From positions 1-31,042 of the forward strand of contig JALWRO010000021.1 in assembly GCA_027080605.1 (NCBI GenBank): a stretch of 31,042 nt of DNA, written 5' to 3'. Below are positions 3,106-11,853 of this stretch, piece after piece; position 1 is the first letter of the stretch; each line of letters opens with the position of its first letter. The notes under the pieces are model-generated. The model saw only the letters and a list, made by a program, of their open reading frames with translations, had not been told where the DNA came from and did no database searches. The position numbers and the translations under genes were made by a program. The DNA is from Campylobacterales bacterium (GTDB lineage Bacteria > Campylobacterota > Campylobacteria > Campylobacterales > QNZT01).

Positions 3106-4303
3106 AAAGCGTGCAATAGCGCTTTTTCAAAGCGGTGTGGAGGCGGTACAGCCGGAAAATCTGCATTATGATCTGGAGGGGTTTGCTGAAAAAGAGATCA
3201 CGTTGCTGGGTTCCGGAAAAGCGGTAGCGGGTATGGCAAAGGCGTTGCTGGCGCAGGGCGTGAAAGTGAAAAAGAGTTTTCTGGTGAGTCATGTTTATGA
3301 AACGGTTCCCGGAGTGGAGATGTTTGTCTCTTCACATCCGGTACCCTCATCCCAAAGTGTGGAAGCGGCAGAAAAGCTCATGAAGATTATGGCAGAACTG
3401 AAAGCGGAGGAGCAGTTTGTCTATCTGCTTTCCGGAGGCAGTTCCGCGCTGGTTGAAAAGCCGATTGCACCGGTGACACTGGAAGAGATGCGCGTTTTGA
3501 CGACCATGTTGTTACAAAGCGGTGCGTCGATCGGAGAACTCAACACGGTTCGCAAACACCTCTCCATGATCAAAGGCGGCAGACTGGGGGCAATGACAAA
3601 GGCAAAGGGTAAAGTGTTTGTCATCAGCGATGTGATCGGCGACGACTTGGAAGCGATCGGATCGGCACCGCTTTACTGCGACAGCAGCAGTAGTGAAGAT
3701 GCCAAAGAGGTTTTGGTACAATACGGTTTATGGGGACGTGTGGCAGAGTCTGTTCGAAATGTGATTACATCGTCTCTTCATGAAACACCCAAAATGCCAA
3801 ATCCGGCGATTGTGCATGAAGTGGTGGCATCGAACAGGAGAGCGCTGGAAGCGGTAGCGCGTGAAGCGCAGCGGATGGGGTACGAAGCAGAGATTGTCAC
3901 TGACCGTATGCAGGGGGATGTTCGGGAAGTTGCCGGTAAGATTGCCCGATATGCAGAACTGCCGGTAAAAGAGAAGCCGCGCTGCTTTATCTTCGGCGGG
4001 GAAACGACGGTGGAAGTCAAAGGTAACGGCAAAGGCGGTCGCAATCAGGAACTCGCCCTTTGGGTCCTCAAAGCGATTCAAGAGAAAGGTATCTGTACTT
4101 TTCTGAGTGCCGGAACGGATGGTAAAGACGGTGTGGGTGATGCAGCAGGCGCGGTGGTGGAGAGCGGCGATCTTCATGAAGATGTGGATTACTATTTGCA
4201 AAACAACGACTCTTACCGCTACCATCAAAAGTACGGTACGCTGATTCGCACGGGTGCAAGCGGTACCAATGTCATGGATATCATGATCCTGATAAAGGAG
4301 TAA
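3095..4303 (+). CDS. Glycerate kinase, MOFRL/DUF4147 class (glycerate 2-kinase type)
   Basis: GSGKA, LSGGSSAL, RKHLSMIKGGRL, SDVIGDDL, GGETTV, GKGGRNQELAL, GTDGKDG, GTNVMD. Start moved to the ATG at 3095 (MSHKK); the upstream part of the 500-aa track ORF overlaps gpgP. Confidence 0.88.
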   Translation: MSHKKRAIALFQSGVEAVQPENLHYDLEGFAEKEITLLGSGKAVAGMAKALLAQGVKVKKSFLVSHVYETVPGVEMFVSSHPVPSSQSVEAAEKLMKIMAELKAEEQFVYLLSGGSSALVEKPIAPVTLEEMRVLTTMLLQSGASIGELNTVRKHLSMIKGGRLGAMTKAKGKVFVISDVIGDDLEAIGSAPLYCDSSSSEDAKEVLVQYGLWGRVAESVRNVITSSLHETPKMPNPAIVHEVVASNRRALEAVAREAQRMGYEAEIVTDRMQGDVREVAGKIARYAELPVKEKPRCFIFGGETTVEVKGNGKGGRNQELALWVLKAIQEKGICTFLSAGTDGKDGVGDAAGAVVESGDLHEDVDYYLQNNDSYRYHQKYGTLIRTGASGTNVMDIMILIKE

Positions 4304-9669: not shown

Positions 9670-10266
9670 TTATAACTCTTCTGCGTGTTTTGCGAGATAC
9701 TCTGCAACACCTTCTGTGTCTGCTTTCATTCCCTCTTCGCCTTTGTGCCAGCCTGCAGGGCAAACTTCACCGTGTTCGTCAGTAAAGAGCATTGCGTCGA
9801 TCATTCTGATCATTTCGTCAATATTTCTTCCCAGCGGCAGGTCATTGATGACGGCATGTCTGACGATTCTGTTTTTGTCGATCAGGAAAGATCCTCTGAG
9901 TGCTACGCTTTTGTTGAACAGAACGTCATATTTTTTTGCGATTTTTTTTGTCAGATCTGCTACGAGAGGGTATCTTACCTGTCCGATTCCGCCTTCGCTT
10001 ACCGGTGTGTTTTTCCATGCAAAGTGAGAGTATTGGCTATCAACGGAACAACCGATGACATTGATACCTCTTGATGTAAACTCATCGAGTCTGTGGTCGA
10101 AAGCAATGATCTCTGAAGGACAAACGAATGTAAAGTCCAGTGGATAGAAAAAGAGAACTGCTCCGTTTTCTCCGAGGTTTTCGCTCAGTTTAAAATCGTC
10201 AACGATGGTGTTGTCGCCGAGAACGGCAGTTGCAGTGAAGTTAGGTGCTTTGTTGGTTACTAACAT
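9670..10266 (-). CDS. ahpC: Typical 2-Cys peroxiredoxin (alkyl hydroperoxide reductase C)
   Basis: FFYPLDFTFVCPSE, ALRGSF, LPLGRN, EVCPAGW. Confidence 0.97.
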   Translation of the reverse strand: MLVTNKAPNFTATAVLGDNTIVDDFKLSENLGENGAVLFFYPLDFTFVCPSEIIAFDHRLDEFTSRGINVIGCSVDSQYSHFAWKNTPVSEGGIGQVRYPLVADLTKKIAKKYDVLFNKSVALRGSFLIDKNRIVRHAVINDLPLGRNIDEMIRMIDAMLFTDEHGEVCPAGWHKGEEGMKADTEGVAEYLAKHAEEL

Positions 10267-10378
10267 ATGTAAATCCTTTTTGTAAAATTTATTTGAGGAA
10301 AAATTTTATCGAATATTAACTTAAAAGTCGATAAGTTCTTCATGTAGATCGGCAGAATTGATAGAAAAAGATTTTTTT

Positions 10379-10387
10379 TGCTAAAAT
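10379..10387 (+). promoter_or_regulatory. Extended -10 box (TGCTAAAAT) directly abutting the 270-bp structured element; likely metK promoter
   Basis: TGn + TAAAAT preceded by a T-tract; the expected TSS (about 10393-10395) falls within the left repeat arm. Confidence 0.6.
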
Positions 10388-10657
10388 ATGGTCACATCTA
10401 AAACCCCTATGCGGTCTCAGCGTTACAGAGAACGTCACAATCAAGGCAGTACTTTGCAGCCTTAGCCGTCGCTAAGTCAAAAAGTGCTAACGCGGAGTGT
10501 GGCTTTCTCTGTAACGCCCTCCGGGAAGGCTTTGGAGGCACGATCTTTCCTCCGTTTTCCGATTGACGTAGTTATGGCTATGCCTGCTCGTAAAACAGAG
10601 AAAATCTCATGCCTCCAAAGTCCTCTGAGACCGCATAGGGGTTTTAGATGTGACCAT
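10388..10657 (+). repeat. 270-bp non-coding element with a perfect 33-bp terminal inverted repeat enclosing two long hairpins (structured RNA leader/ncRNA or MITE-like element)
   Basis: 10388-10420 ATGGTCACATCTAAAACCCCTATGCGGTCTCAG is the exact reverse complement of 10625-10657. Inner stems: 10421-10432/10505-10516 (12 bp) and 10530-10540/10610-10620 (11 bp). The repeats are certain; the functional class is not. Confidence 0.9.
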
Positions 10658-10692
10658 GAACACGATTTTTATTATACATACAGGGAACTTAG

Positions 10693-11853
10693 ATGTTAAA
10701 AAACTTTTTGTTTACAAGTGAGTCAGTCACGGAGGGGCATCCGGACAAGATGGCTGACCAGATCAGCGATGCGATTTTAGATTATATTATTGAAAGAGAT
10801 CCAAATGCCAGAGTAGCATGCGAGACGATGCTTTCCAACGGTTTTTGTGTGATTGCGGGAGAGTTGAAGACGACCACCTATGCACCGATGCAGGATATCG
10901 CCAGAGAAGTAGTGCGTGAGATCGGCTATACCGATGCGCAGTACGGCTTTGACTACCGCAGCGCCGGTGTGCTCAACGGAGTAGGGGAACAGAGTGTCGA
11001 TATCAATCAGGGTGTCGACCAGGCAGGCGGTGAGATTGGAGCAGGTGATCAGGGACTGATGTTCGGATATGCCTGTAAAGAGACTGATGTCTTGATGCCG
11101 TTGCCGATTCATATGGCGCATCGTCTGACCCAGGGACTGGCGGAGGCGAGAAAGAGTGGCTTGATTCCTTTTTTACGTCCTGACGGCAAGGCACAGGTGA
11201 GTATTCGCTATGAAAACGGGGTACCTGCAGAGATCGACACGATTGTTATCTCAACGCAGCATGCGCCGAGTGTGGAGCAAAATACCCTTAAAGAGGCGGT
11301 GATTGAAGAGATTGTCAAGAAAAATATTCCGGAAGGAATCAAAGCAGACAATATCAAGTACCATATCAATCCGACAGGACGTTTTGTCATTGGCGGTCCG
11401 CAGGGCGATGCCGGTTTGACAGGACGGAAGATTATTGTCGATACATATGGTGGAAGCTGTCCTCACGGCGGTGGGGCGTTCAGTGGGAAAGATCCTTCCA
11501 AAGTGGACAGAAGTGCAGCGTATATGGCACGTTATATTGCTAAAAACCTTGTGGCTGCGGGTGTCTGTGACAAAGCGACGATCCAGCTTGCCTATGCGAT
11601 CGGCGTAGTAGAGCCTGTATCGATTCTGGTTGATACCCACGGTACTTCGTATGTCGATGAGAGCAGACTGGAAGCGTGTGTGCGTGAGTTTTTCCGTCTG
11701 ACGCCGCGGGGAATTATCGAAAGTCTCGATCTTTTGCGTCCCATTTATCGCAAGACAGCTGCGTATGGGCATTTTGGACGGGAACTGGATACTTTCAGCT
11801 GGGAAAGAAAAGACAAAGTGTCACAAATTAAAGACTATTTCGGATTAAAGTAA
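10693..11853 (+). CDS. metK: S-adenosylmethionine synthetase
   Basis: [58 protein letters not shown]. Confidence 0.98.

Follow-up and report, generated by a model that had tools for sequence, protein, structure and literature searches.

A folded 270-nt insertion upstream of metK in a Campylobacterales genome, probably an IS5-type MITE whose core is common to several phyla

The folded 270-nt sequence upstream of metK in the window, the whole 31,042-nt stretch of Campylobacterales DNA that was analysed, is very probably a non-autonomous MITE that has nothing but its terminal inverted repeats in common with its parent and is mobilised in trans by an IS5-family transposase, a reading to which we assign a probability of about 0.85. 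It represents a new family of a known kind, the IS5-type MITE; what is unusual is its folded core, which is common to phyla and joined in them to different IS5-family ends. An earlier, sequence-only reading of the window had proposed either a MITE-like non-autonomous element or a so far unrecognised structured RNA or 5′ leader that controls SAM synthetase. The former is borne out by ends common to IS5-family IS elements, by 4-bp target duplications and by presence/absence polymorphism.

The insertion at metK and its fold

The element body, a 266-bp member of subfamily A delimited by its fold, by alignment and by comparison of ends, occupies positions 10390..10655 on the + strand. Its closing stem P1 consists of a 5′ arm (10388..10420, the inverted repeat noticed earlier) and a 3′ arm (10625..10657, + strand), which lie 204 nt apart and are exact reverse complements over 33 of 33 nt, as the claim of a perfect 33-bp stem had it. 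The minimum free energy of the + strand is −150.3 kcal/mol, compared with −73.0 ± 4.9 kcal/mol for dinucleotide shuffles (z = −15.7), and that of the − strand is −155.2 kcal/mol (z = −16.1); both strands therefore fold equally well, and the strand is not decided by energy alone. On the + strand the architecture is a four-way junction of P1, P2, P3 and P4. Arm P2 (10421..10517) contains an internal loop formed by AATCAAGGC (10439-10447) and AACGCGGAGT (10489-10498) and ends in an apical hairpin, TAGC-N4-GCTA. Arm P4 (10530..10620) has conserved internal-loop segments, (C)RATCT and ATCTYAC, and the apical sequence TAGYT..GGCTA. The two long hairpins described before are thus recovered in the + strand fold, at ~10421-10517 and ~10530-10620, and between them lies a feature absent from the earlier list, the + strand mini-hairpin P3 (10517..10525), with 3 bp of the form CCC-N3-GGG, here CCC-TCC-GGG. 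The argument that G.U pairs favour a + strand fold stands in part: the pair 10435/10502, corresponding to columns 49/116 of a 14-copy alignment, is a U.G pair kept in 12 of the 14 copies, but the energy is strand-neutral.

The element has no transposase gene, and the only two ORFs called mechanically across it are 44 and 71 aa long. Nor does the element match a known RNA family. An Rfam cmscan of the window copy with E-values up to 10 returned only noise, SAM riboswitch families included, and permissive thresholds applied to the window copy and 15 cross-phylum loci returned only tRNAs and noise, in line with the failure to recognise a known RNA from the letters. Several likenesses judged by eye were dropped, namely those to attC R-boxes, the IHF consensus, loop E, the k-turn, the GNRA-receptor motif, the hairpin and twister-sister ribozymes, and SRP and 6S RNA.

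Downstream of the insertion lies metK (10693..11853, + strand), whose product, S-adenosylmethionine synthetase, is assigned from three S-AdoMet_synt domains (E = 1e-39 to 4e-66); the divergent gene on the − strand (9670..10266) is an AhpC/TSA peroxiredoxin gene by domain match. A strong promoter-like site on the + strand (10358..10387) combines TTGATA, an 18-nt spacer and a TG-extended TAAAAT (TTGATA-18-TGcTAAAAT; 10 of 12 matches, with the TG present) and stops at 10387, the base before the inverted repeat starts. The TGCTAAAAT of this promoter is also preserved at the empty sites of relatives. The element has landed directly past the metK −10 box, and its nearness to metK is incidental. Because the promoter-like site ends at 10387, transcription should start within the element, and we infer that the metK mRNA would carry a highly folded leader of ~260 nt. 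Once transcribed, this predicted leader with its long stem is a plausible substrate of RNase III, which may cut it.

Copies, empty sites and IS5-family ends

The assembly from which the window derives (G000; 2.45 Mb, 357 contigs, 95% complete) contains a second full copy upstream of groES that is 91% identical at the DNA level, together with ~10 partial matches, which turned out to represent diverged subfamilies at full length. In total, the genome holds ~19 copies in four subfamilies, of which subfamily B is the commonest. Many dispersed copies had been named in advance as the sign of a MITE, and ~19 dispersed copies are what the genome search found. Terminal inverted repeats are present in all full copies. 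No recurrent neighbour gene was found around the 19 copies, all of which lie tightly between unrelated (housekeeping) genes; around 48 cross-phylum copies the sole recurrent neighbours were ABC transporters and LysR regulators, which are no more than the most abundant gene families. The same genome displays a series of decayed forms, comprising mini-hairpins of the two ends only (P1-only), one-arm forms without P3 and P4, and solo ends; the loci of decayed forms are C78:3872-3915, C194:8825-8875, C266:2203-2373, C81:1067-1228, C142:5843, C73:2796 and C238:8060. Some contigs start or end inside a copy (C236:1-224, C87:1-243, C318:11161-11332 and C338:1-20), which makes the repeat family one cause of the fragmented assembly. 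More generally, such copies fragment metagenome assemblies and, in genome scans, can pass for regulatory RNAs.

Around the groES-proximal copy, which sits within the groES 5′ region downstream of a −10-like box, TGTAAAAT, we noticed by eye a tRNA-like sequence ~250 nt upstream (L002:660-780, on contig C13 of G000); inspection of that 5′ region by eye showed no CIRCE-like operator.

The metK site is empty in three genomes of the same genus (G004, G008 and G009), in which the flanks are 81-92% identical and the site reads ...AAAATAG(A/T)CGCG, in fuller form ...TGCTAAAATAG(A/T)CGCGATTTT.... Altogether, nine of the nine other same-genus genomes that matched have a metK leader without the element. 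Contigs from vent metagenomes carry both alleles: X1 and X2, from two studies, bridge both filled junctions at metK, and X7 and X8, from two other studies, have the empty allele, with a 277-nt skip and GA(C/T)GCGAT joining the two sides. The metK insertion is therefore real and polymorphic, and with both junctions bridged by metagenome contigs the doubt that it might be an assembly artefact is removed. The metK promoter with and without a 270-nt folded insert in co-occurring vent populations would constitute a natural experiment. Empty orthologous sites were likewise found in relatives for the groES copy and for the copy on contig C322.

In a further genome, G015, a copy splits the ORF of an RT-Cas1 protein, and deletion of exactly 270 nt restores the frame SPLLSNIYL. 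This adaptation gene has probably been inactivated by the element. The ORF (L039:905-3268, on contig C39 of G015) encodes a fusion of RVT_1 followed by Cas_Cas1, with the RT domain split by the copy at L039:1503-1768, and it lies downstream of a 300-aa ORF. A 266-bp body together with a 4-bp target duplication accounts for the 270 nt added per insertion.

The link to IS5 emerged from comparison of the ends. Campylobacterales genomes contain an IS whose transposase, 347 aa long, reaches 280 bits with NF033581, an IS5-family equivalog for which the cut-off is 140 bits. This IS, ~1.27-1.35 kb in length and with termini GGGCACCTCTAAAAAC / GGG(A/C)ACCTCTAAAAAC, is found in G015, G032 and the complete genome G033; it is present as fragments in G017 and as a degraded 991-bp copy in G007, a member of the window's genus. 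Element subfamilies A, C and D have the same 16-nt termini as the IS. In the window copy, the left terminal motif GGTCACATCTAAAACC (10390..10405, + strand) matches the IS terminus GGGCACCTCTAAAAAC at 13 of 16 positions, and the right motif (10640..10655, − strand) is its inverted copy, as given by the exact repeat and the table of ends. The sister copy on contig C13, with the end GGGCACCTCTAAGAAC, matches the same terminus at 15 of 16 positions. A second IS clade, with ends GAACCCTCTGAAAAAC, corresponds to another element subfamily with ends TTGAACCCTCTGATAAAC. The termini of subfamily B, ATTACCGCACCAAC, differ, and a search for its parent IS identified none. A scan of the IS elements for the structured core gave no match, so that only the ends are common to element and IS.

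The target sites point to the same family. TTAA...TTAA flanks the IS in G033 and three copies of the element, and one copy in G027 has a non-palindromic duplication, TGAA...TGAA; YTAR targets and 4-bp duplications are characteristic of IS5. At metK the duplication is degenerate: its putative left copy, ATAT (10386..10389), placed from other copies and the parent IS, overlaps the final two bases of the −10 box, and its putative right copy, ATGA (10656..10659), agrees with the left one at two of four bases, compared with an ATAG-like empty site.

The parent IS was not found in G000, where, at 95% completeness and 357 contigs, absence is weak evidence, nor in the complete genomes G027 and G039, both of which have many copies of the element, with up to ~30 loci in G027. 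Across 41 Campylobacterales genomes the IS is present in 7 and the element in 26, and the IS does not track the element. Neither do any of the other profiles searched over these 41 genomes (Y1_Tnp, RVT_1, DDE_3/IS630 and DDE_Tnp_1). The generic DDE_Tnp_1 profile masked the relevant IS among other elements, which is why the link emerged only from the ends. A check of the multi-copy ORFs in G000 for a transposase found none, and an IS630 origin, suggested by the TA flanks, was abandoned since DDE_3 was not found in any of the 11 genomes of the window's genus.

A second, independent pair of MITE and IS with shared ends occurs in Oscillibacter, where the IS differs from the Campylobacterales one. 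All 19 of the 19 young one-arm copies examined there read Y-TA/GGCC...GGCC/TA-R, with sharp junctions (slashes), and between one pair of MITE-like ends 851 bp apart lies an IS5-family transposase, NF033580, in two ORFs, with the split at position 112 of the profile. In Oscillibacter sp. 1-3 this 851-bp IS (L277:1270-2838) directly follows the stop codon of an IS630-type (DDE_3) transposase ORF, one mobile element being nested against another. Copies in Flammeovirga and Phaeodactylibacter are flanked by TTAA/TTAA and CTAG/CTAG. Flammeovirga aprica contains a full IS5-family element (L301:194-1397; NF033581, 366 bits) with canonical IS5-type ends, GGAAGGTGCGAA, and TTAA on both sides. It was rejected as the parent of the local MITE, the ends of which are GTACTGTGACAGAAG; as the only full NF033581 element there, it leaves Flammeovirga with no parent IS identified.

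Taken with the shared ends, these target sites suggest a mechanism in which an IS5-family DDE transposase, supplied in trans by the ~1.27-kb IS with ends GGGCACCTCTAAAAAC, most likely recognises the ends common to both elements. Insertion would occur at AT-rich TTAA/YTAR-like sites and duplicate 4 bp. The four-way-junction core is not derived from the IS. Its fold is kept by compensatory changes in those lineages that are still transposing, a pattern that fits selection for the fold there and neutral decay after insertion.

Covariation and spread of the core

Conservation of the fold was assessed by aligning 14 full copies with MAFFT, without any fitting to a structure. The RNAalifold consensus comprises 92 pairs, 74 of which have changes on both sides, and within P1 25 of 29 pairs covary among copies. 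Pairing is found in 95.7% of cells, compared with 71.6% when partners are shuffled and 36-43% when one side is slid by 1-3 columns; the corresponding covariation scores are 0.66, 0.21 and ~0.1. The core helices are P1 of ~31 bp, P2 with the loop AAUCRAGGC / AACGNRGAGU and the apical UAGC-N4-GCUA, P3 (CCC-N3-GGG) and P4. The P2 internal loop is invariant across phyla, and the P3 stem is invariant in 14 of 14 aligned copies and kept across the order. Strand-specific features consist of the loops and three G.U pairs. A covariance model gives forward-strand scores about twice the reverse-strand ones in bits, and G.U exceeds A.C mismatches ~2.5-fold, with counts of 158:60 within the order and 201:80 across phyla.

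In subfamily B, which is young, 27 of 33 shared stem changes are compensated, and of 57 private changes 25 affect one side only and disrupt a pair. Compensation among shared changes together with one-sided private changes argues that the fold most likely helps the element to propagate. Double-strand cut-and-paste does not by itself explain a core conserved in a strand-specific manner and across phyla.

A pattern built on the P2 loop matched many phyla in a named genome collection, and the covariance model confirmed nearly all of these matches. With viral contigs as a control the model passed only 4 of 22 pattern matches and rejected 18, which indicates that it is selective; a search of a plasmid collection returned no match. 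The core recurs in Campylobacterota, Gammaproteobacteria, Burkholderiales, Bacteroidota, Clostridia, Planctomycetota and others. Pattern-free searches of whole genomes for a ~160-nt one-arm form (P1 and P2) returned at least 76 matches in Oscillibacter sp. 1-3, at least 104 in Flammeovirga aprica and at least 122 in Phaeodactylibacter luteus; the Oscillibacter genome holds ~116 copies of this form. Whole-genome searches of Shewanella and Pelomonas revealed a few 270-nt copies. A MITE family does not usually extend beyond one genus or family. Our search of the literature for the core sequence, for MITEs in Epsilonproteobacteria/Sulfurimonas and for structured intergenic repeats found no description or name.

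A tentative and, in our estimate, rather doubtful extension of the IS5-type MITE reading is that the four-way-junction core, or minimally P2 with its invariant loop, is a functional single-stranded module of RNA or ssDNA that spreads by pairing with local IS5-family ends and whose fold promotes mobilisation or persistence. Under this proposal the fold may recruit the transposase or a universal host factor, or may bring the ends together. If it holds, the element would belong to a new class of structured hitch-hiker, unlike a deletion-type or ends-only MITE. Should the fold contribute to transposition, non-autonomous elements could carry their own conserved structural cargo, and the identified transposases would put a testable model easily to hand.

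Modules of ~90 nt that consist of P2 only, without closing stem or transposon ends, are also seen in the spacers between tRNA genes. In a Sulfurimonas MAG two of them (L154:3396-3489 and 3768-3861) form a tandem arrangement, hairpin-tRNA, hairpin-tRNA, in the sense orientation, and at two other tRNA spacers (L130:177-258 and L151:3178-3267) the module is antisense.

Alternative readings and known systems

A leader RNA serving metK alone, cis-regulatory or riboswitch-like, that responds to SAM or a related metabolite or governs the stability of the mRNA through RNase III, would fit both the place of the element, between −10 box and start codon in sense orientation, and its very stable fold with covariation. 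It does not agree with ~19 copies beside unrelated neighbour genes, with an orthologous metK leader that lacks the element in every matched same-genus genome and in environmental alleles, or with the absence of any Rfam match, SAM riboswitch families included. Transcription orientation is not biased either: between co-directional genes 13 copies are sense and 20 antisense, and a further 18 lie in divergent and 8 in convergent gaps. The claim of the sequence-only reading that a structured RNA or 5′ leader controls SAM synthetase falls on the same grounds, and we consider a metK-dedicated regulatory RNA to be largely refuted and its probability close to negligible; one candidate metK riboswitch in Campylobacterota is thereby removed. 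The random orientation relative to host transcription also counts against a broader proposal, in which the conserved core is itself a functional non-coding RNA, a multi-copy sRNA or ribozyme-like module that acquired transposon ends and spread for the effect of the RNA. The invariant internal loop and covarying stems across phyla, the ~2.5-fold excess of G.U over A.C, the lack of matches to known RNA families and the occurrence of P2-only modules without terminal repeats, several of them in tRNA-gene spacers, would all be expected of such an RNA. However, the element is not accompanied by a conserved promoter or terminator, inserted copies decay through one-sided changes, and among RNA runs none was found to contain the locus, so that we regard this proposal as improbable.

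The strand-specific features, that is, the conserved loops, the G.U excess and the forward covariance-model scores of about twice the reverse ones, would equally suit a REP/REPIN-like or IS200/IS605-type element that moves as folded ssDNA through an HUH (Y1) transposase, with the similarity to IS5 ends being secondary, and so would the conservation of structure but not of stem sequence. The distribution of Y1_Tnp argues otherwise: of the 26 genomes with the element 8 lack it, the complete genome G039 among them, and of the 15 genomes without the element 8 have it, an association with an odds ratio of ~2 that is not significant; G018 and G008 likewise bear the element without a Y1 hit. In two complete genomes in which dnaA was located, 15 copies lie on the lagging-strand template and 21 on the leading-strand one, that is, without the replication-strand bias expected of an IS200/IS605-derived element (PATE). 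Long terminal inverted repeats and target duplications are present here, and IS200/IS605 elements have neither; the IS200-bearing contigs of G000, moreover, have no sequence in common with the element. An HUH-driven mover therefore appears very unlikely, and mobilisation by an IS5-family transposase is the reading that we retain for the comparisons below.

MITEs linked to IS5-family elements through their terminal inverted repeats alone have been described in Porphyromonas and Neisseria, namely BrickBuilt, MITE293 and MITE700 of Porphyromonas gingivalis with ISPg1/3/4/9, and the Neisseria ATR with ISNme1 (PMC4596501). The element at metK resembles them, compared by description, in being small, gene-less and multi-copy, in having (almost) the same ends as an IS5-family element from related genomes, and in its interior unrelated to the IS, its short target duplications and its predicted long stem-loop; it differs in its four-way-junction core with invariant loops and in its occurrence in many phyla with varied IS5-family ends. 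Folded repeats maintained by compensatory base changes are known from bcr1 of the Bacillus cereus group, a dispersed intergenic repeat of ~155 bp that, like the element here, has short flanking direct repeats and a strain-variable distribution (PMC3184786). Unlike the phylum-spanning core described here, bcr1 is restricted to a single species group; its direct repeats are 5 bp long, and its transcription has been shown (PMC3184786).

With REP/REPIN sequences and their RAYT (Y1 HUH) transposases the element has in common that it is a hairpin-forming intergenic repeat of conserved structure, a single strand being recognised in REP/REPIN; it differs in its long terminal repeats and target duplications, its larger, branched form and the lack of a Y1 association. 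The likeness to SAM riboswitches (SAM-I, SAM-II, SAM-V and others) goes no further than a multi-stem fold and a location upstream of metK, whereas the element matches no Rfam model, is not conserved at metK loci and is multi-copy in the genome. Correia elements (CREE/NEMIS) of Neisseria are MITEs whose terminal repeats measure ~26 bp; they insert at TA, often within a promoter or 5′ UTR, and their hairpins, when transcribed, are RNase III substrates and alter the expression of neighbouring genes. They are simple hairpins of 100-155 bp, occur in Neisseria only and have no known transposase; in contrast, the element described here is 266 bp long and branched, and has a candidate parent IS.
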